Made by a program: the position numbers and the translations under genes. The notes beneath the pieces were generated by a model. It did not search any database, was not told the DNA's origin, and worked only from the letters and a program-made list of their open reading frames with translations. Positions 46,259 through 57,275 of a stretch of 64,000 nt of DNA are shown here, in pieces. The DNA comes from Myxococcota bacterium. Lineage in GTDB: Bacteria > Myxococcota_A > UBA796 > CAJQPC01. Position 1 is the stretch's first letter. Each line of letters begins with the position of its first letter. The stretch is from NCBI GenBank assembly GCA_036229005.1, contig JAZAMN010000030.1, positions 1 through 64,000 on the forward strand, written 5' to 3'.

Positions 46259-47077
46259 TCACCAGCTCAGCGTGGGCGCGTCCGTGAGCGCCGCCGAGGC
46301 GAACACCCGTCCGTTCTCCGGGCAGTAGTGCCAGTCGGTGTCGACCCCCGTCAGGGTGGCCTGGTCCGGGACCTCGTTGCAGTAGGGGAGAACGCTGCCC
46401 TCGGCGGCGCTGAGCAGGTTCCGCGGCAGCCCGCCGGGGACCAGGATCCCGAGCGCCTGGCCCGGTCCGTCCCCGTCCAGGTCGTAGTGGTTGGCCTGGA
46501 GCTCGTCCAGGGTGGGCCAGTGGCGACCGGGGTGACGTCTGAGCTGTTCGTGGGCCTCCGAGAGCCCCGCCCGAAGCCGCGCCAGGTTCTCCTGTGTGCG
46601 GGCCTCTGCGTCGGGGGGCGGCCGGTAGTTCTCGGGGTTGGGGCCGGGCGCGGCCTGCTTGGGGGGCAGCAGCGCCAGCAGGGTCAGGGGGAGGAGGAGC
46701 AGCGCAGCCCACCTCAGCCTTGGGGCCCACCGCCTGAGCCTCCCGTCCCCCTCGGCCACCTCTACACCCCCTCCACCGGCGAGGACATGCTGGCGCGCGC
46801 TGGGAGAGAGCACGCAGTCGCGCAGCGTGCAGCCCTGGGCCTGGACGCCGTCGAGCTGGCATGCCCGGAGCAGCGCGCCGTCCAGCCGGCACCCCCGAAG
46901 GTCCGCGCTCCGCAGGTCACAGCGCTCCAGGGTCGCTCCGCGCAGGTCGCAGTCCCGGAGGCTCAGGACCCGGACATCACGCAGGTGGGCCCGCTGCAGG
47001 GAGCAGTCCTCCAGGCGCCCGAGCTCGCCGCCCTGGATCTGGGCTCCATCCAGGTCCTTGCCCTCCAGGACCTTCAC
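46259..47077 (-). CDS. Pentapeptide-repeat protein with TM and pilin-like C-terminal domain
   Basis: DLRGA/DLRSA/RLDGA repeats, TM helix, then ENLARLR..WPTL..WHY. GTG start inferred. Confidence 0.65.
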   Translation of the reverse strand: MKVLEGKDLDGAQIQGGELGRLEDCSLQRAHLRDVRVLSLRDCDLRGATLERCDLRSADLRGCRLDGALLRACQLDGVQAQGCTLRDCVLSPSARQHVLAGGGGVEVAEGDGRLRRWAPRLRWAALLLLPLTLLALLPPKQAAPGPNPENYRPPPDAEARTQENLARLRAGLSEAHEQLRRHPGRHWPTLDELQANHYDLDGDGPGQALGILVPGGLPRNLLSAAEGSVLPYCNEVPDQATLTGVDTDWHYCPENGRVFASAALTDAPTLSW

Positions 47078-47424
47078 TCCTCTGGACGGGCCAGGCAGAC
47101 CTGCGTGTAGGAGACGGGGAATCCGGTGCCCTTGACGCCGATCTCGAAGTCCGCGCTGAAGGGCCGCCAGCCCTCCTTGCTCTGCTCGCTGGCCCACTGT
47201 CCGATGGGATCGTTGGGATCGGAGGTGGTGAAGATGCCGCCGTACTCATCGTCCGGCGTGACCCTGAAGGTCTTGCACATGAGCTCCGCGGGAGGCGGCG
47301 GGGTCAGGGTGGGGAGCGCCGGGGGGGCGTCCTGTGCTTGGGCCTGGGAGAGGCTGGTGCCGGCGATGGCGCCGATGGCGAGGGCGATCCCGGCGACGCC
47401 GAGCAGCTTGGGGGACAGACGCAT
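47074..47424 (-). CDS. Small secreted protein
   Basis: Signal peptide ending AQA; two Cys. Confidence 0.6.
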   Translation of the reverse strand: MRLSPKLLGVAGIALAIGAIAGTSLSQAQAQDAPPALPTLTPPPPAELMCKTFRVTPDDEYGGIFTTSDPNDPIGQWASEQSKEGWRPFSADFEIGVKGTGFPVSYTQVCLARPEE

Positions 47425-47495: not shown

Positions 47496-47535
47496 CGGAC
47501 AAGCGGACAATTTTTGGCCCCGGACAATTTTTGGC
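47496..47535. repeat. Tandem operator-like direct repeats
   Basis: cggacaatttttggc at 47504-47518 and 47521-47535, plus a partial cggacaa at 47496-47502. Confidence 0.8.
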
Positions 47536-47592
47536 TCTCACCCCCTGGCTTTGTTCAGTATGTTGTTTGTGTCGATGACAGAGGAGTCGTCC

Positions 47593-48369
47593 ATGCAGCC
47601 CCAGCGAATCACCCCCTCTCCGGTCCCCGCCCCCCGCCTGGCCCTGGCGGAGTCGGAGCTCTGTGCCCGCTTCGGCGGTCCTGTGGTGCGCGTGCTCGCG
47701 GGGCTCTCGGTGGACGGCCACCGCATCGACATGGGCGACCTGCTGCTCCTGGATCCCGGCGCGGTCGCGGGGGACCTGGTGGTGGTCGTCGCGCGGGGCC
47801 GGGGGCGTCCGATGCTCGCCCGCATGAGCGAAGCGGGTCCTCTCGGCGTGCCCAGCGGCGTGCCCTGCTCTCGCAGCCGCTGGCGGGTGCTGGGCCGGGT
47901 CATCGCGCAGGTCCGCCCCTCCACGCCCGCTCAGGACAAGGTGCTGACCTTCCCGGCCGCGCGCGCTCAGGGCATGCTGCCTCTGGCCCCCAGCTCCCTT
48001 GCGCAGGGCGTCGCGGTGCTGCGTCTGGAGCGGGCCCCGACCCCGGAGATGGTGGAGCTGGTCGCGGAGCGTCAGGGCGCGCTGCGTGTCCGGGGCTCCG
48101 AGCTGCATCTGCCCCTGGGGGAGCTGTCTCTGGAGTCCCTGGGGGCCCTGGTTCGGGACCTGGGCCTGCGCTTCGGGGTGCGGGTCCGGGGTGCCCTCGC
48201 GATGGAGCTGGAGCACGCTCAGGCGGCCTGTGCGCTGATGTCCTCGGGCCAGGTCGCTCGGGTGCTCCCGGGTCAGGAGCTGCTCCCCTCTGCGGTGGAG
48301 CGTGAGCTCGCCCAGGTCCAGGAGGAGGAGCGCATGGTGGCTCAGGCTGCGCAGCTCACCCTCTTCTAG
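47593..48369 (+). CDS. Hypothetical: degenerate S24 (UmuD/LexA-like) domain, Y-family palm-like region and beta-clamp motif
   Basis: RBS gaggag; GLSVDGHRIDMGDLLLLD..GDLVVV..VLGRVI; C-terminal QLTLF. Confidence 0.6.
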   Translation: MQPQRITPSPVPAPRLALAESELCARFGGPVVRVLAGLSVDGHRIDMGDLLLLDPGAVAGDLVVVVARGRGRPMLARMSEAGPLGVPSGVPCSRSRWRVLGRVIAQVRPSTPAQDKVLTFPAARAQGMLPLAPSSLAQGVAVLRLERAPTPEMVELVAERQGALRVRGSELHLPLGELSLESLGALVRDLGLRFGVRVRGALAMELEHAQAACALMSSGQVARVLPGQELLPSAVERELAQVQEEERMVAQAAQLTLF

Positions 48370-48437: not shown

Positions 48438-49241
48438 ATGCAGGACTTCAAGACACTGATCGCGCACGACCGGCCCTTGATCGGCGTGCTCCATCTGCCC
48501 CCCTTGCCGGGGGCTCCGCGGCCCTCTCCGGGCCTGGACTCCGTGATCCGGACTGCGCTCCGGGACGCCGAGGCGCTCGCGGAGGGCGGAGCTCAAGGGC
48601 TGATCGTGGAGAACCTGGGGGATGCGCCCTTCGAGCCGCTGGTCGAGCCGCATGTGTGCGCCATGCTGGGGGTGATCGCCCACCAGGTGGTGCAGCGCTT
48701 TGGGGATGCGCTGGTGGTCGGGGTGAACGCCCTGCGGAACGACGCGGCCTCGGCGCTGGGGGCGGCGGCCGCCGCTCAGGCGGGCTTTGTGCGGATCAAC
48801 GTGCACACCGGCGCCATGGTGACCGACCAGGGCCTCATCCAGGGGCAGGCCCGTCAGACCCTGCTCTACCGTCAGCGGCTGGCCCCTTCGCTGGGCATCG
48901 CGGCGGACGTCATGGTCAAGCACGCCGCGCCGCTGGGTGTGGGGACCGACCTGGCCCAGAGCGCGGCGGACTGCTTCCACCGCGGGGGAGCGGACGCCCT
49001 CATCATCTCGGGGAGCGGCACGGGTCAGCCCACCTCATCCCAGGACCTGCAGGTGGTCCGGGAGGCTGTCCCGACCGCGCCGCTGTGGATCGGCTCGGGC
49101 TTCAGCCTCGAGACCGCAGCGAGCCTGCGGCCCCACTGCACGGGAGCCATCGTAGGCACCGCGCTGCACCAGGACGGCAAGTTGGCCGCCCCCCTGGACG
49201 TACAGCGGGTGCGGGACATCCGGAGCGCCCTGGACGGCTGA
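48438..49241 (+). CDS. BtpA/SgcQ family protein
   Basis: IGVLHLPPLPG, VENLGDAPF, GVNALRND, ADVMVKH. Confidence 0.92.
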   Translation: MQDFKTLIAHDRPLIGVLHLPPLPGAPRPSPGLDSVIRTALRDAEALAEGGAQGLIVENLGDAPFEPLVEPHVCAMLGVIAHQVVQRFGDALVVGVNALRNDAASALGAAAAAQAGFVRINVHTGAMVTDQGLIQGQARQTLLYRQRLAPSLGIAADVMVKHAAPLGVGTDLAQSAADCFHRGGADALIISGSGTGQPTSSQDLQVVREAVPTAPLWIGSGFSLETAASLRPHCTGAIVGTALHQDGKLAAPLDVQRVRDIRSALDG

Positions 49242-49264: not shown

Positions 49265-51079
49265 TCAGCCTCCAAAGAAGCTCAGCAGCAGGTAGGCGCT
49301 GAGCACCACCGTGGCCCAGAGGGCGGTCTCGCCGCTGGGCCAGGGCTCGCCGAAGCTGCTGTCGCCCGGCTTGAACATCTGTCCGAAGCGGTCCGCCGCG
49401 CCCTGCACCGCGCCGCCCACGACGTCCTTGGTCTTCTCGGCCGCGCGGTCGATCGCGTGCACCACCTTGGACAGGCCGCCGGGCAGCCACTTGCGGTAGA
49501 CCACGTCGACGTCCAGCACCGTGGAGCGCAGCTCGGGCGGGTACCAGCCCATCTTCTGCAGGAACACGAACGCCGCAGCGGAGCCCAGCAGGAGCTGCAT
49601 CTGGGTGACCACGTGGGTCAGGTCGTAGGCGCTGTAGTCACCCACGTCGTAGGGCAGGATGGCGTAGAGGGGGGCGGGGAACACGCCCACGGCGATGCAC
49701 AGGAAGGCCGCGATGGCCATGGCCACCAGCATGTTGCGGGGGGCCTCTCCGGTGACCTCGCGGGCCTTCTTGGAGTCGTGGGCAAAGAACGCAAAGTAGG
49801 GGATCTTGATGCCCGAGTGGTGGAACACACCCGCGCTGGCGAACAGCAGGATCAGGAAGGCCCAGGTGTAGCCCTGGTCGGCGGCCGCGGTCAGGATCAT
49901 GGACTTGGTGACAAAGCCCGAGAACAGCGGGAAGGCGGAGATGGCCATCGCGCCGACCACGGTGAACCCGGTGGTCCAGGGCATCTTGCGCCACAGGCCG
50001 CCCAGCTCGGAGCCGTTGACGGTGCCTGCGCGCAGCAGCACGGCGCCCATGCCCATGAACAGCAGGCCCTTGTACAGGATGTGGGCGAACGCGTGGGCCG
50101 CTGCGCCGTTGATGGCGAGCTCGGTGCCCACGCCCACGCCCACGACCATGTAGCCGAGCTGGTTGTTGAGGCTGTAGGCCAACACCCGCCGCAGGTCGTT
50201 CTCGATGACCGCGTAGAAGATGGGGAACGCGGTCATCGTGGCGCCGATGGGCACCAGGATCTCGGTCCCGGCAAAGCCCCGCGCCAGCGCGTAGATCGCC
50301 ATCTTGGTGGTGAAGGCGCTCATCCACACGGTGCCGGTGATGGTGGCCTCGGGGTAGGCGTCCTCCAGCCAGCTGTGCAGCATCGGGAAGGCGGCCTTGA
50401 TGCCAAAGGCCAAGAAGATCAGCAGGTTGCCCAGGCTGCCGTCCAGCCCCATCAGGTCGAAGGCCAGGGAGTCGGTCTCGGCGTAGCGGAACAGGGCGCC
50501 GGCCAGCAGCAGCACGCCCGACAGCACCTGGATCACCAGGTAGCGCATGCCCACGCGGGCAGCGCGGTTGGTTCCGCGCACCCAGATCAGGAACACGCTG
50601 GTGAGCGCGGTGAGCTCCCAGTACACGAACAGCGTGACCAGGTCGCCGGCGAACACGGCTCCGATGGCGCCGCCTGCGTAGCTGAGCCCGGCCAGGTGCT
50701 GCAGGTCATCCCGGACGCGCAGGGCGTAGATCACCGAGAGGAACGCGGCGATGTGGAAGATGGTCCCGAAGATGCGGGCCAGGCGGTCGGCGCGCACCGG
50801 CTGGAGCGCGTAGCCGAACAGCTCGGTGTCCAGCGTGAAGCCCTCAGGGAGCAGCCAGATCTGCAGCAGCCCCAGCAGGGGGAGCAGCAGCATGAAGCCG
50901 CCCTTGAGGCCAACGGGGGAGCGGCCGCGCAGGGGCCAGATGCCATCCACCGGACCCTTCTCGGGGGTGGGCACACCTGGAAACAGTGGGACGAGCAGGG
51001 CGCCCAGGATCAGCAGCAGGCCAGGGGGGAGGCTGGCCGCGATATCGCCAGCCAGGCCGGCGGACAGGGTCTCAAGCAT
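49265..51079 (-). CDS. Mrp/Mnh Na+/H+ antiporter subunit (MrpA/D-like)
   Basis: FVYWEL, HSWLEDAYPE, RRVLAYS, HILYKGLLFM. Confidence 0.88.
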   Translation of the reverse strand: MLETLSAGLAGDIAASLPPGLLLILGALLVPLFPGVPTPEKGPVDGIWPLRGRSPVGLKGGFMLLLPLLGLLQIWLLPEGFTLDTELFGYALQPVRADRLARIFGTIFHIAAFLSVIYALRVRDDLQHLAGLSYAGGAIGAVFAGDLVTLFVYWELTALTSVFLIWVRGTNRAARVGMRYLVIQVLSGVLLLAGALFRYAETDSLAFDLMGLDGSLGNLLIFLAFGIKAAFPMLHSWLEDAYPEATITGTVWMSAFTTKMAIYALARGFAGTEILVPIGATMTAFPIFYAVIENDLRRVLAYSLNNQLGYMVVGVGVGTELAINGAAAHAFAHILYKGLLFMGMGAVLLRAGTVNGSELGGLWRKMPWTTGFTVVGAMAISAFPLFSGFVTKSMILTAAADQGYTWAFLILLFASAGVFHHSGIKIPYFAFFAHDSKKAREVTGEAPRNMLVAMAIAAFLCIAVGVFPAPLYAILPYDVGDYSAYDLTHVVTQMQLLLGSAAAFVFLQKMGWYPPELRSTVLDVDVVYRKWLPGGLSKVVHAIDRAAEKTKDVVGGAVQGAADRFGQMFKPGDSSFGEPWPSGETALWATVVLSAYLLLSFFGG

Positions 51080-51545
51080 GGTGGCCCTCCTGGTCCGCGG
51101 GCTCGCTGGGCGGCTGGAAGGGGGCGTCGTCCCCGTAGTAGTCCTCGTCGCGCATCACCAGCATGCGGAGCACGCGGGCGGCCAGCACCAGGCCCACGCA
51201 GCCAGCGAACCCGTAGACCGCGTGGAAGGCCGGGACCATCTCGAATGCGTAGTGTCCGTGCTTGTGGCCGCCAAAGCCACTGTGGTCCTCGCTTGCGCTG
51301 GGATCTCCGTGGTGCTCGGCGGGCTGCTCGGGGGTGGGGTGGGCCCCGGTGTGGGAGGGCTCAGAGTGCTCCTCGCCTGCCGTCTGATGGGTCTCGGCCT
51401 CATGGCTGCCCAGGGAGGACAGCCAGCTTGGCCCGAACCACACCGCGTCGATCAGCACAAAGCCCAGGACAAGGGCCCACAGACCCCGGACGATCCACCT
51501 TACGGTGCCCAGGTCGACGCTGGGGGGGCCGTGCTCGTGGCTCAT
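51072..51545 (-). CDS. Small 2-TM His-rich Mrp-associated protein
   Basis: PAFHAVYGFAGC...MRDEDYY; overlaps both neighbours. Confidence 0.7.
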   Translation of the reverse strand: MSHEHGPPSVDLGTVRWIVRGLWALVLGFVLIDAVWFGPSWLSSLGSHEAETHQTAGEEHSEPSHTGAHPTPEQPAEHHGDPSASEDHSGFGGHKHGHYAFEMVPAFHAVYGFAGCVGLVLAARVLRMLVMRDEDYYGDDAPFQPPSEPADQEGHHA

Positions 51546-53143
51546 GGCAGGCCTCCGTTCTGGACGATGGGGCGAATGAAGGCCTCCAGCTGGGGGGCGA
51601 GCACAAAGAGCGCCACGCAGCCCAGGGCCGTGAACACGATGGGACCGAGCATCAGCAGGTGGGTCTCCCGGATGCGCGCGCCGATGGGCAGGATGGGGAC
51701 CAGGGCGGGGTCCTCGATGGACTTCTCGTCGGGGTAGCCGTGGCCGTGATGGTCGTCGGCGTGGTGGGCGTCCCCGTGGTCGTCGTGGTGGGCGTGGTCG
51801 TCGTGGTGGTGGGCCTGGGCGTCCTCGGGCAGGAAGAAGGCTCGGACCACGATGGGCATCAGGTAGCCGATGGCCAGCAGCGAGCTGAGCATGTAGACGC
51901 CGACGAAGATGTAGTCCTGGGGCTGAGTCGTGGCGCCGATGGCCATGAACCACTTGGCCCAGGAGCCGCCTCCGGGGGGCAGGCCGATGATCGAGAAGCT
52001 GGCGATGGTGAACGCCGTGAACATCACGGGCATCTTGCGGCCCAGGCCGTTGAGCTCACTGACCTTGGACTTGTGCACCGAGACCAGGCAGGCGCCGGCG
52101 ACAAAGAACAGGGTGATCTTGCCCATCGCGTGCATGGCGATGTGCATGCTGGCGCCGACCACGCTGTCCGGGGTGACCAGCATCGCGCCGAGCACGATGT
52201 AGGCGAGCTGGGAGATGGTGGAGTACGCCAGCCGGGCCTTGAAGTTGTCCAGGGTCAGCGCGACGACGCTGGAGATCAGGATGGTGCCGGCGGCCACCCA
52301 CTTGAGGATGTCGCTGCCGCCGGTGCTGTAGAGCAACTCCAGCCCGAAGATGTAGATGACCACCTTGAGGATGGTGAACACGCCGGCCTTGACCACCGCG
52401 ACGGCGTGGAGCAGCGCGGAGACCGGCGTGGGGGCCACCATGGCGTTGGGGAGCCAGCGGTGGAAGGGCATCAGGGCGGCCTTGCCGGCGCCGAACGCGA
52501 AGAGCCCCAGCAGGATGGGGATCATCGGGCCGTCGACCTTGGAGGCCAGGATGCCGCCCGGGGTGAAGTCGAGCGTGCCCGTGAGGCTGTAGGTCCACAG
52601 CACACCCAGCAGGAGCAGCCCCACCGAGGTGCTGACCAGGATGCCCAGGTAGATGCGCCCGGCGCGGCGGGCGGCCTCGTTCCCGGCGTGGGTGACCAGC
52701 GGGTAGGTCGAGAAGGTCAGCACTTCGTAGAACAGGAAGAGCGTGAACAGGTTGGCCGACATCGCGATGCCCAGCGCAGCGAAGATGGCCAGCGCGAAGC
52801 TGATGTAGAAGCGGGTCTGGTTGGTCTCGCCGTGGCCCCGCATGTAGCCGAAGGCGTACAGGGAGGTGGGCCCCCACAGGCCAGAGGCCACCAGCGCATA
52901 CAGCAGGCCCAGGGGCTCGAGCTTGAAGGCCAGGGGCACGTTCTCGAACACGTGGAAGAACACGACCTCCGGGCGGGCGCCGGCGGAGATCTCGGGGACC
53001 ATGGCCACCACGCAGCCAAAGGTCAGCAGCGCGGCCATCACCATCAACGCGTCGCGCAGATCCGGGATCTTGCGCGCGAAGAACATCAGGGGCACCACCC
53101 CCAAGGGGATGAAGAAGGCCACCATCATCAAGGTGCCAGCCAT
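51542..53143 (-). CDS. Mrp antiporter subunit D-family
   Basis: HRWLPNAMVAPTPVSALLHAVAVVKAG; His/Asp-rich loop. Confidence 0.88.
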   Translation of the reverse strand: MAGTLMMVAFFIPLGVVPLMFFARKIPDLRDALMVMAALLTFGCVVAMVPEISAGARPEVVFFHVFENVPLAFKLEPLGLLYALVASGLWGPTSLYAFGYMRGHGETNQTRFYISFALAIFAALGIAMSANLFTLFLFYEVLTFSTYPLVTHAGNEAARRAGRIYLGILVSTSVGLLLLGVLWTYSLTGTLDFTPGGILASKVDGPMIPILLGLFAFGAGKAALMPFHRWLPNAMVAPTPVSALLHAVAVVKAGVFTILKVVIYIFGLELLYSTGGSDILKWVAAGTILISSVVALTLDNFKARLAYSTISQLAYIVLGAMLVTPDSVVGASMHIAMHAMGKITLFFVAGACLVSVHKSKVSELNGLGRKMPVMFTAFTIASFSIIGLPPGGGSWAKWFMAIGATTQPQDYIFVGVYMLSSLLAIGYLMPIVVRAFFLPEDAQAHHHDDHAHHDDHGDAHHADDHHGHGYPDEKSIEDPALVPILPIGARIRETHLLMLGPIVFTALGCVALFVLAPQLEAFIRPIVQNGGLP

Positions 53144-54622
53144 CTACTCAACCCCCATCAGGCTCGCGGCGGCCTTCATGGCGACCTGTCCGGTCCACTC
53201 GGTCCACAGGCCGAACACCACCGTGGCGCCGACCATCACGTAGGTGGGCCACAGCATGGAGAAGGGGGCCTCGCGGGCATCCTCCACTTCTGCGGAGGGC
53301 TCCTTGAGGTAGGCGACCTCGACCACCTTCCAGACGTAGCCCACGGCCAGCAGGCTGGAGCCCAGAGTCAGGGCGGCGAGCCACCACTGGCCGGCGTCCA
53401 GGGAGGCCTGGACCAGGTACCACTTGGAGATGAAGCCAGCGGTGCCGGGCACACCGATGAGCGAGAGGCCGCCCACGACAAAGGCCAGCATGGTCCAGGG
53501 CATCTTGCGGCCCAGGCCGGCCATGTCCTCGATCCTGGAGGAGTTCAGCCGGTAGGTGATGTTGGCCACCACCAGGAACAGGGCGCCCTTCATCAGGCCG
53601 TGATTGAAGAGGTGGACCAGACCGCCTGCCAGACCAAGCTGGCTGTTCATGCTCAGGCCCAGGGTCATGTACCCGATCTGGGCCATGGAGCTGTAGGCGA
53701 GCAGCCGCTTGATGTGGGTCTGGTACATCGCGGCGATGGAGCCCACGAACATGGCGACCACGGACAGGGGCAGCAGCAGCCACTCCAGGTGCACCGTGCC
53801 GAACACGAAGGCGGCGCCGAAGATGGTGAACACCACCCGGACCAGCACGAAGTAGCTGACCTTGGTCGCCGTCGCGCTCAGGAAGGCGCTGACCACGCTG
53901 GGGGCGTAGGTGTAGGCGTTGGGCATCCACTGGTGCAGCGGGAACACCGCCAGCTTGATGGAGCTGCCGACCACCAGGAAGCCAAAGGCCAGCAGCACCG
54001 TGCGGGTGTGCATGACCGGCTCCAGGCGCTGGGCCAGATCCGACATGTTGAGCGTGCCGGTCATCTGGTAGAGAAGGCCGACACCGAGCAGGATGAAGGT
54101 GCCGCCGATGGTGCCCATCACCAGGTAGGAGAAGGCCGCCGTCAGGGCCCTGCGGCCCTTGCCCAGAGCGATCAGCGTGTACGAGGACAGCGAGGTGATC
54201 TCGACGAACACGAACACGTTGAAGGCGTCCCCGGTGACCGAGATGCCCAGCAGGCCGGTCATGCAGAGCAGGAACGCCGTGTAGAACAGGTACTGGCGCG
54301 ACTCCGGGATGGCCAGGCTCGCGGAGCCGGGGCCATAGGGGAGCACCAGCGAGGCGATGCCGGTGACGATCACCGCCAGGAAGGCGTTGGCGATGTCGAC
54401 CCGCAGCTCGATGCCCAGGGGCTGCTCCCAGCCGCCCAGGGCGTAGGAGATCGCACCGGTCTCCAGGGTCGTGGAGAGCAGGGTGATGGCGATGGCCAGG
54501 GAGACCCAAGCGATGCCGGTGGCCCACACCCGCACGACGCCAGGGCGCCGAAGGAAGAGGGAGAGGGGGGCCGCCAGCAGGGGAATCGCCACTTGCAGGG
54601 CGGGGAGGTGGTCGCGGATCAC
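53144..54622 (-). CDS. mrpD: Mrp antiporter subunit D
   Basis: DAFNVFVFVEI, PLHQWMPNAY, KRLLAYSS. Confidence 0.9.
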   Translation of the reverse strand: MIRDHLPALQVAIPLLAAPLSLFLRRPGVVRVWATGIAWVSLAIAITLLSTTLETGAISYALGGWEQPLGIELRVDIANAFLAVIVTGIASLVLPYGPGSASLAIPESRQYLFYTAFLLCMTGLLGISVTGDAFNVFVFVEITSLSSYTLIALGKGRRALTAAFSYLVMGTIGGTFILLGVGLLYQMTGTLNMSDLAQRLEPVMHTRTVLLAFGFLVVGSSIKLAVFPLHQWMPNAYTYAPSVVSAFLSATATKVSYFVLVRVVFTIFGAAFVFGTVHLEWLLLPLSVVAMFVGSIAAMYQTHIKRLLAYSSMAQIGYMTLGLSMNSQLGLAGGLVHLFNHGLMKGALFLVVANITYRLNSSRIEDMAGLGRKMPWTMLAFVVGGLSLIGVPGTAGFISKWYLVQASLDAGQWWLAALTLGSSLLAVGYVWKVVEVAYLKEPSAEVEDAREAPFSMLWPTYVMVGATVVFGLWTEWTGQVAMKAAASLMGVE

Positions 54623-55011
54623 GCGTCCTCCCGCGCGTCGATGGCCACGAGCTCGTCCTCTTCCACCGTTCCGTATGCCTCCTGGATCCGGACCACGAGG
54701 GCCAGACCCAGCGCCGTCGTCGCGATGCCGACCACGATGGCCGTGAGCATCAACACGTGGGGGATGGGGTTGGAGAACACCTGCTCAGCGTGCTCTGCGC
54801 CGTGCTCGCCGTGCATGTCCTCGAAGATGGGGGCGGTGCCGCCCAGGACCTTGCCGAGCGCCACGTAGAACATGATGACGCTGACCTGGAAGATGTTCAG
54901 GCCCATCACCTTCTTCACCAGGTTCTCCCGGGAGATCACGGTGTAGAGCCCGATCATCATCAACAAGATGACCACCACGTAGATCCACAGGCCGGCTGCG
55001 GATTCCATCAT
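54619..55011 (-). CDS. mrpC: Mrp antiporter subunit C
   Basis: NLVKKVMGL, NPIPHVLMLTAIVVG. Confidence 0.9.
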   Translation of the reverse strand: MMESAAGLWIYVVVILLMMIGLYTVISRENLVKKVMGLNIFQVSVIMFYVALGKVLGGTAPIFEDMHGEHGAEHAEQVFSNPIPHVLMLTAIVVGIATTALGLALVVRIQEAYGTVEEDELVAIDAREDA

Positions 55012-55475
55012 CGAGAGCTCCTCTGGGGAGGCAGGGGCTTGACCCGCTCCCGGCCGGCGAAGGCGTAGAAGATGGTGGTCATGGCCGCGGTCACGGTGAT
55101 GCCCACGCCCCCCTCGATGAGCAGCAGTCCGTAGTGCTCGCCGTGGTGGGGGTCGATGGCCTTGTACTCCAGGAACTGGCCGCCCAGGAAGAGGGTCCAG
55201 ATGCCCACGCCGCCGTAGAGCAGCACGCCCAGGGCGGTCAGGATCTCCACCAGGCGGGGGGGGACGGCGCGCTTGAGCGCGTCCAGCCCTTCGACCAGCC
55301 CATAGAGCACCAGGCCCGCGGCGAAGATCACGCCAGCCTGGAAGCCACCGCCTGGGCCAAAGTCACCGTGGAACTGCACGTAGAGCGCAAAGAGCAGGAT
55401 GAAGGGGAGCAGGTGGCGCGAGACCTCCCGCAGGATCACCATCTCGGACATGCGCATGGGGGCCTTGGAGCTCAC
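55008..55475 (-). CDS. mrpB: Mrp antiporter subunit B (MnhB domain)
   Basis: HGDFGPGGGFQAG. Confidence 0.9.
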   Translation of the reverse strand: MSSKAPMRMSEMVILREVSRHLLPFILLFALYVQFHGDFGPGGGFQAGVIFAAGLVLYGLVEGLDALKRAVPPRLVEILTALGVLLYGGVGIWTLFLGGQFLEYKAIDPHHGEHYGLLLIEGGVGITVTAAMTTIFYAFAGRERVKPLPPQRSSR

Positions 55476-56059
55476 TCCTCACCTCCGTGCGCGGCGTCGT
55501 CGCCGGCCTCTTGAGCGGCGTCCTCCAGGGGGAGCGCGTCCTCGTCCTGTCGGCGGTGGGCCAGCAGCAGCATCACGCCGGTCGCGGCGGTGAAGATCAC
55601 CGTGGTCTCACCGAAGGTGTCGTAGCCACGGTAGGAGCCCAGCACCGCGGTCACGATGTTGGGGATGTGGAAGTGCTCCAGGGTGCCTTCGATGTAGGCC
55701 GGCGCCAGGTAGTGGTGGATGGGCGCGCCCGGATCCGAGTAGTGCGGCATGTCCGCGATGCCCCAGAGCAGGACTAGGCCCATCAGCACGACCACCGCAA
55801 GGGGCAGGACCTTGAAGCGCCCCTGCCGCTCGTGGGTGGGCGTCAGCGCGAGGGTCCCCAGGAAGAGCACCGTCGAGATGCCCGCGCCGACGGCCGCCTC
55901 GGTGAACGCGACGTCCACCGCGTCCATCAGGGTGAACAGCCCAGCCGAGATCAGCGAGAAGATGCCGGAGAGCATCGCAGCCGCCAGCAGGCTTCGGGTG
56001 CGGATGATGACCACCGCCATGGCCAGCAGGAAGGCGAACAGGATGGGTTCGACGGTCAC
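55472..56059 (-). CDS. Mrp subunit B N-terminal part (DUF4040)
   Basis: DVAFTEAAVGAG, NIVTAVLGSYRGYDTFGE. Confidence 0.88.
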   Translation of the reverse strand: MTVEPILFAFLLAMAVVIIRTRSLLAAAMLSGIFSLISAGLFTLMDAVDVAFTEAAVGAGISTVLFLGTLALTPTHERQGRFKVLPLAVVVLMGLVLLWGIADMPHYSDPGAPIHHYLAPAYIEGTLEHFHIPNIVTAVLGSYRGYDTFGETTVIFTAATGVMLLLAHRRQDEDALPLEDAAQEAGDDAAHGGEE

Positions 56060-56415
56060 TGGGGCGCCTCTTCGTTCTCGTCCACCGCCTGGGCCTTGTC
56101 ATCGTCCCAGCGCAGCCCGCGGGCGTAGGCCGCCTTGACCAGGGCGTGGCCGCTGGTGGGGCTGGAGATCAGCAGGAAGACCCCGATGGCGAAGAGCTTG
56201 ACCAGCACAAGCCAGTCGCCCTCCAGGAAGTGCGGGAGGGTCTGCACGCCCAGCCCGGCCAACATCAGGCTGGCGCCCAGGGTGTCCGTCAGGGAGGCCC
56301 CGTGGGTGCGCGTGTAGAAGTCGGGGAGGCGGAGGATGCCGATTCCGCCGATGACACAGAAGATGCCGCCGCTCACCAGCAGCACCCAGGAGACGATGTC
56401 CAGGGCCAGGATCAC
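56056..56415 (-). CDS. mrpG: Mrp antiporter subunit G
   Basis: RLPDFYTRTHG, PTSGHAL. Confidence 0.9.
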   Translation of the reverse strand: MILALDIVSWVLLVSGGIFCVIGGIGILRLPDFYTRTHGASLTDTLGASLMLAGLGVQTLPHFLEGDWLVLVKLFAIGVFLLISSPTSGHALVKAAYARGLRWDDDKAQAVDENEEAPQ

Positions 56416-56696
56416 AGGCGCCTCCGGGGCCGCTGGTCGTCGCGGGCCAGGCTGCCGAAGCGGGCGTACTTGAGGATGGCGACCGTGCCGATGAAGTTCA
56501 TCAGCGCGTAGATCAGCGCCAGGTCCAGGAAGTCGGGCCGGCCGACCAGGAAGCCCGCGACCGCGATCAGCAGGACCGTCTTGGTCCCGAACATGTTGAG
56601 CGCCAGGATCCGGTCGAACACCGTCGGGCCCAGCACCGCGCGGGTGAAGGCCAACGCCATGGTGACCAGCACCGCGCTCATCGCCGCCCAGAACAT
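56412..56696 (-). CDS. mrpF: Mrp antiporter subunit F
   Basis: GPTVFDRILA. Confidence 0.9.
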   Translation of the reverse strand: MFWAAMSAVLVTMALAFTRAVLGPTVFDRILALNMFGTKTVLLIAVAGFLVGRPDFLDLALIYALMNFIGTVAILKYARFGSLARDDQRPRRRL

Positions 56697-57184
56697 CAGG
56701 CCTTCCCCGGGGCGCTCTGCCCCTCGACCCGCTGGCACTTGCGGTCCATGGTCCCTTCCTGCACGCCCTCGGCGGTGTCCTGGGTCAGCGCGTGCACCAG
56801 CAAGCTCCCGTCCCGCAGGTCCAGCGTGATGGTGCCCGGGGTCAGGGTGATGCTGTTTGCGTAGAGCGTCTGGCCCAGGGGGGTCTTGGGGCCGCAGGGC
56901 ACGCGGATGAGCTGCGGCTTGATCGGCATCTTGGGCGAGAGGATGACCCGCGCCACGTGCAGGTTGGAGAGCAGGATCTCCTTGAACAGGTAGGGCAGGT
57001 ACAGCAGCAGCCGCAGCCAGAACCCACTGTTCGACCCCTTCTCGTCCGCCCCCAGGCGGCGGGTCAGCAGCGCGACGAAGGCGCTGGAGGCCACCCCGAA
57101 GCCGATGGTGAGCGGCTCGTACACCCCGGACCACGAGAGCCAGGTGGCCAGCAGGACGACGAAGATGATCAGAGTGCGCGCCAA
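56696..57184 (-). CDS. mrpE: Mrp antiporter subunit E
   Basis: ANSITLTPGT. TTG start inferred. Confidence 0.88.
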   Translation of the reverse strand: MARTLIIFVVLLATWLSWSGVYEPLTIGFGVASSAFVALLTRRLGADEKGSNSGFWLRLLLYLPYLFKEILLSNLHVARVILSPKMPIKPQLIRVPCGPKTPLGQTLYANSITLTPGTITLDLRDGSLLVHALTQDTAEGVQEGTMDRKCQRVEGQSAPGKA

Positions 57185-57275
57185 GAGCGAAGAGGCTCCC
57201 AATGAGGGCGCGATTAAAGCACGAAGGCGGGGCCTGACCCCCGGACTGCACAGTCCGTTGACACCCCGACGATCC

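Follow-up and report, generated by a model that had tools for sequence, protein, structure and literature searches.

What might a protein do that is predicted to join a LexA/UmuD-type fold to a polymerase palm, retains neither active site, and ends in a motif for the sliding clamp? The question is raised by a gene in the first 64,000 nucleotides of contig JAZAMN010000030.1 (assembly GCA_036229005.1) of a Myxococcota bacterium; this whole stretch is called the window here and is contig C30 of the host genome, G000. The gene encodes a protein of 258 amino acids (aa), P0001, which an initial annotation, made from the letters alone, described as a catalytically dead, clamp-docking scaffold merging the roles of UmuD and ImuB. 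P0001 proves to belong to a conserved, order-specific protein family that has lost both sets of catalytic residues and keeps a β-clamp-binding motif, and it is likely to be induced by DNA damage, judging from its promoter. Of the early description, the dead S24-fold domain, the dead palm and the conserved clamp motif are supported, whereas the merging of two roles has been weakened.

The open reading frame (ORF) reads through on the forward strand behind a good ribosome-binding site, as first reported (Table 1). Its guanine plus cytosine content at the three codon positions is 0.84/0.51/0.88, and copies from the same genus differ mostly at the third position (for example, 90 third-position against 19 first- and 15 second-position changes between G003 and G002, or 76 synonymous against 29 replacement codons); the codon-position composition and the synonymous excess indicate that the gene is under selection. 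P0001 was assigned to no family in Pfam or NCBIfam, and a sequence search of the PDB gave no meaningful match. With P0001 as the single query, matches were found in 42 of 61 related genomes and, in an unindexed search, 72 matches were obtained; a family profile matched 125 of the order's 154 genomes and 58 of the 61 good-quality ones, in a single copy per genome with one genome excepted (profile search of the 154). In a sample of the phylum, the profile matched 41 of 43 genomes of the same order and none of 257 outside it, although remote relatives may be missed because nine candidates per genome were scored with a profile built from the order itself.

Residues ~14–108 are predicted to adopt the S24 fold of LexA, UmuD and CI by AlphaFold models and fold searches, which bears out the annotated S24 likeness (expected at residues ~25–110) in structure but not in sequence: the S24 family search of 71 aligned members gave no match, and an hhalign comparison of the family with 31 LexA C-domains returned a probability of 1.1%. 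The same holds for the palm described below; both likenesses are invisible at the sequence level, yet are backed by predicted structure. The fold search cannot place the domain with UmuD over LexA or CI. Family residues F32, V34 and G38 align with LexA positions S-8, S-6 and S-2 (an F-x-V-x-x-x-G register), which sets the nucleophile column at 40, occupied by V40 in P0001. Serine occurs in this column in 0/70 members and in 31/31 LexA controls. The serine first reported as kept is S39, one position early and shared by only 8/70 members, so that this claim falls. The catalytic lysine is lost, as had been noted: its column (A76 in P0001) holds Gly in 65/70 members, Ala in 5/70 and Lys in none, against Lys in all 31 LexA controls. 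Nor is there a helix-turn-helix domain, again in line with the early description, with only ~30 residues preceding the first S24 strand, and no Ala/Cys-Gly cleavage site was found in the N-terminal arm, where any AG or CG occurs in 16 of 64 arms and in no conserved column.

According to passages of PMC9926225, S24 domains bind the RecA filament with two elements: a hydrophobic pocket and, immediately ahead of the lysine, an acidic patch. At the place of that patch the P0001 family carries a basic hairpin (consensus PRGxGRP) with a net charge of +1 or more in 67/70 members, as opposed to −1 or less in 31/31 LexA proteins of the order. Of the hydrophobic pocket that takes up RecA F203, the first two positions are retained (F in 46/70, V in 63/70), and the third is Pro. 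R96 is found in 70/70 members and W97 in 69/70.

Fold searches and AlphaFold models likewise predict a palm at residues ~134–231, close to the ~140–235 for which a Y-family palm had been proposed. The Pfam IMS cut-off was passed by six long homologs (three of 30 scanned and four of eight in a second scan, one repeated) and missed by four others; the matches tie the palm to the Y-family polymerases. Alignment to host DinB shows that the catalytic carboxylates are absent from P0001 and from the long forms, in agreement with the degraded acidic residues noted at the outset, and with both catalytic sets lost (alignments to LexA and host DinB) the term "catalytically dead" is apt. The fingers are absent (~92 model residues cover ~170 template residues), and P0001, which ends 27 residues after the palm, has no thumb or little finger; in the alignment, the thumb is missing even from the longest forms. 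In most pairwise comparisons, host DinB scores better than host ImuB against the long homologs.

The terminal QLTLF fits the clamp consensus QL(S/D)LF, whose third position is tolerant (PMC11139829, in the passages on the motif), and the motif is conserved: QLxLF lies within the last 40 residues of 57/74 proteins, a count that leaves out P0017 and P0002, against 2/4592 control ORFs, and a relaxed clamp pattern in 66/74 against 33/4592. QLSLF is the commonest variant. The P0001 chain ends at the motif without extension, and the host genome contains dnaN.

The family occurs in three length forms: a short one of about 105–200 aa with N-domain and motif (family f3 and one genus of f1), a middle one of about 215–280 aa with a reduced palm between them (f1, f5, f6 and P0001 itself), and a long one of about 300–400 aa (f2 and f7). 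The palm is wholly gone from many homologs. Since Y-family polymerases have all domains, the forms that keep only the palm or no palm are most readily explained as losses from a fusion of S24 domain and polymerase (on a tree with an unresolved backbone), with the polymerase part trimmed in series from palm, fingers and tail to palm to nothing. This series points to a minimal module of S24 domain and clamp motif, whose function is testable with purified DnaN. Domains of the UmuD family are RecA-triggered self-cleaving switches; here such a domain has lost catalysis and the RecA-facing charge, has gained a clamp motif, and has been kept across a whole order.

The suggestion of an SOS accessory role is backed by the promoter. 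The palindrome GGACAATTTTTGG occurs in two copies upstream of the gene, at 47505 and 47522, followed by a LexA-type half-site; a sigma-70 scan of this region returned no promoter. Among 29 homolog promoters (one locus without upstream DNA was left out), GGACA-N5-TGTCC with at most two mismatches is found in 28, against 19/366 control windows and 9% of shuffles, for a consensus picked after the promoters had been viewed, and TGTTCAG in 22, against 7/366 control windows. GTTCAG, which is present in 21 of 30 lexA promoters, is the end of the Myxococcus xanthus SOS box (passages of PMC9705874), and the geometry of the palindrome is that of DdaA and DriD sites as given in parts of PMC12392091 and PMC10853764. 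The strict palindrome occurs 13 times in the host genome, twice at the P0001 gene; the other 11 lie before imuB, recA, ssb, a recN-like gene and recC, before a topoisomerase A subunit gene, a metallophosphoesterase gene and three ORFs without a family, and between a divergent WYL gene and an 82-aa ORF. The imuB promoter carries the same two elements as the P0001 gene at similar spacing. Thus, P0001 is likely to be damage-induced.

A WYL+WCX gene is found in 61/61 genomes, with the motif in 19/30 of its promoters. Of the three WYL matches in the host genome, the WYL+WCX gene at G000:C36:89754-90725 (−) (L117/L173), which has a GGACA palindrome upstream, encodes the best candidate activator for a putative damage regulon of the DdaA/DriD kind in this order, and its product would bind the palindrome. 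Such a candidate regulon, drawn from promoter analysis, is relevant to the Myxococcota, in which induction independent of LexA has been explained only in part; the relevant passages of PMC12288472 report two WYL regulators in M. xanthus and give no site. It shares with the DdaA and DriD regulons the palindrome, an AT-rich spacer of equal length and a place upstream of recA, ssb, gyrase-type genes and the gene of the regulator itself, but differs in the half-site GGACA and in the LexA-type sites at the same promoters, and no description of it was found for this lineage. Among the genes behind the strict palindrome are four small ORFs without a Pfam family (L168, L169, L170, L172), two of them with LexA-type boxes as well, which are candidates for further damage-response genes, and a near-match precedes a gene for a DEDD-type exonuclease (G000:C71:69786, L171).

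With moderate confidence, we favor a model in which P0001, probably made upon damage, docks on the β clamp, where it manages, or puts a brake on, the access of polymerases at stalled forks. The WYL activator and LexA would hold the gene off until single-stranded DNA (ssDNA) appears, whereupon ssDNA would activate the WYL protein, RecA would inactivate LexA, and P0001 would be made. Its QLxLF would fill the clamp pocket in competition with DnaE1 and other partners, while the S24 domain, no longer a switch cleaved by RecA, would use the basic hairpin at the damaged fork to grip either DNA or some acidic partner, perhaps as a dimer. On the clamp, P0001 may restrain DnaE1 or order the exchange of polymerases, and the palm would be an inherited, dispensable remnant of the ancestral fusion of S24 domain and Y-family polymerase. 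Uncleaved UmuD acts in this way by other means, as the abstract of PMC3384344 indicates. A brake of this kind would bear on replication pausing and on clamp hand-over between polymerases in bacteria without Pol V. It is also tempting to speculate, albeit tentatively, that P0001 is a replication checkpoint protein under the WYL and LexA regulon, in which the Phe pocket and basic rim of the charge-reversed S24 face grip ssDNA or the acidic tail of SSB and bridge SSB-coated gaps to the clamp without a translesion polymerase; host SSB ends in DDIPF, and ssb lies in the palindrome regulon.

That P0001 might instead be a mutasome subunit is unlikely, although the shared promoter architecture of imuB would fit it, and small β-barrel subunits are used by known mutasomes (passages of PMC6511836 and PMC12926913). 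Matches to imuB were found in 54/61 genomes: both imuB and a P0001 homolog are found in 49 and neither in four, which agrees with a joint function, as does G037 (88% complete), where neither was found and a umuDC operon is present. On the other side, five genomes have imuB without a homolog match, and among the three with a homolog alone, G010 (90% complete) and G053 (92%) keep it where imuA, imuB and dnaE2 were not found, dnaE being seen once and a separate IMS gene not at all; the third, G016, is uninformative, with no dnaE found in it. Furthermore, the P0001 gene is unlinked to imuA, imuB and dnaE2 in the host. These reside with lexA, dinB, dnaE1 and two recA on contigs other than C30 (recA and dnaE being present in two copies each), and no imuA, Y-family or dnaE genes were found on C30, which confirms the reported lack of an adjacent imuA, dnaE2 or umuC. 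No umuC or umuD was found in the host genome, whose two IMS genes, on other contigs, are those of DinB and ImuB. Contig C2 ends with imuA and imuB, and C12 starts with dnaE2 behind short repeats, so the three genes may form one cassette split by assembly. With separate imuA, imuB, dnaE2 and dinB in the same genome, P0001 does not replace ImuB. The proposed merging of UmuD-like and ImuB-like roles is weakened by these genes, by the lack of fingers, thumb, little finger and any post-motif extension in P0001 and of the palm in many homologs, by an S24 fold not assignable to UmuD over LexA or CI, and by the two relatives that keep a homolog where neither a further dnaE nor a separate Y-family gene was found.

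Three observations concern the polymerase genes of relatives. G037 carries a umuD-umuC operon (L203, G037:C448). In family f7, imuB matches lie in open frames of 1600–1750 aa (G038:C18, G033:C73, G027:C5, G043:C336), possibly ImuB fusions or overlapping frames. In one genome only, G194, a dnaE2-like gene (L112:8109-10001) lies ~2.7 kb upstream of a short-form homolog.

The S24 fold and the first two pocket positions, determinants of RecA binding in the part of PMC9926225 concerned, could also belong to a mimic that cannot be cleaved and that either occupies the groove of the RecA filament or forms pairs with LexA, and tunes SOS timing or tethers RecA filaments to the clamp. However, the reversal of the acidic groove-binding patch and the Pro at the third position make this improbable, and G010 keeps the homolog while no S24 match was found there. 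We are similarly doubtful of a factor, induced by damage, that arrests growth simply by sequestering or removing the clamp, its S24 domain serving only to dimerize or to set half-life: minimal forms of about 105–180 aa reduced to S24 domain and motif, double promoter control that would suit a harmful product, and the activation of the arrest factor DidA by DriD (passages of PMC10853764) speak for it, but the strictly conserved basic hairpin and R96-W97 point to a surface that binds something specific, and no antidote gene is evident. A decaying relic, or a remnant palm of GGDEF/cyclase type with no relation to repair, is largely refuted and highly improbable given the near-universal presence of the homolog in good genomes, the synonymous excess, the conserved clamp motif and promoter, and the IMS matches of the long forms.

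Under the favored model of a clamp-docked brake, P0001 would work like UmuD or ImuB while being a member of neither, the dyad, cleavage site, carboxylates, accessory domains and cassette linkage all being absent. It shares with UmuD/UmuD' of Escherichia coli an S24 fold without a helix-turn-helix, an SOS context and, presumably, a clamp-related role, but lacks the Ser-Lys dyad and a conserved cleavage site, has the RecA-facing patch reversed, and possesses its own QLxLF and a fused palm in a genome where umuC was not found. With ImuB it has in common a dead Y-family palm, a clamp motif and the promoter elements of host imuB; by contrast, it adds an N-terminal S24 domain, lacks fingers, thumb, little finger, RecA-NT and ImuB-C, and stands apart from the imuA/dnaE2 cassette in a genome with a true ImuB. 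DinB/Pol IV shares the palm fold and a C-terminal clamp motif, but not the missing carboxylates or thumb. YolD/YqjX, the UmuD analogues of the Bacillota, are also non-catalytic β-barrel SOS accessories; YolD, however, is encoded by a gene of its own next to that of an active polymerase (passages of PMC6511836), whereas in P0001 an S24-like barrel shares one chain with the dead palm and the clamp motif. No description of an S24-palm fusion was found in the literature within reach, which excludes most subscription journals, and the survey passages of PMC6511836, PMC12926913 and PMC11791011 make no mention of an S24-PolY fusion.

Table 1. Features of the P0001 locus and of related sites (window positions unless a contig is given).
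Feature	Position	Strand	Basis
Upstream palindrome copy 1, GGACA-N5-TGGCC; a WYL-type damage activator is predicted to bind here	47505..47519	+	motif search; regulator inferred
Upstream palindrome copy 2, GGACA-N5-TGGCT	47522..47536	+	motif search
TGTTCAG, LexA-type right half-site; left half unmatched, 5 mismatches to full palindrome	47552..47558	+	motif search
TATGTT, possible −10 element directly 3′ of the half-site	47559..47564	+	inferred from sequence
Ribosome-binding site AGAGGAG	47580..47586	+	sequence
P0001 gene, 258 aa, C-terminal end QLTLF	47593..48369	+	translation, homolog matches, codon statistics
Predicted S24-fold domain without Ser-Lys dyad, residues ~14–108, conserved family core	47632..47916	+	AlphaFold models, fold searches, alignment
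Basic hairpin, residues 67–73, at the place of the LexA acidic RecA-facing patch	47791..47811	+	alignment
Predicted Y-family palm, fingers deleted, without catalytic carboxylates, residues ~134–231	47992..48285	+	fold models; IMS matches in long homologs
QLTLF, predicted β-clamp-binding motif	48352..48366	+	sequence and family conservation
btpA-family gene, conserved neighbor	48438..49241	+	PF03437; within locus in 23/30 genomes (L001–L030)
Small ORFs behind palindrome	G000:C49:46403-46873; C52:12840-13178; C54:~53052-53560; C36:~90925-91170		

Among the neighbors, the btpA-family gene, possibly co-transcribed with the P0001 gene, adjoins P0001 homologs across the families of the order (23/30 genomes). 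A stand-alone PD-(D/E)XK nuclease carrying a terminal Cys cluster is encoded next to the homolog in 12/30 genomes (L102:5127-6050 and others); a search of the host genome with the relatives' nuclease as query gave no match. Upstream of the P0001 gene are a divergent ORF of 116 aa without a family (47074-47424, −), look-alikes of which adjoin P0001 homologs in some relatives, and a pentapeptide-repeat gene (46262-47197, −). Downstream, a run of membrane-protein genes (49265-57250, −) resembles by eye an Mrp-type antiporter operon.
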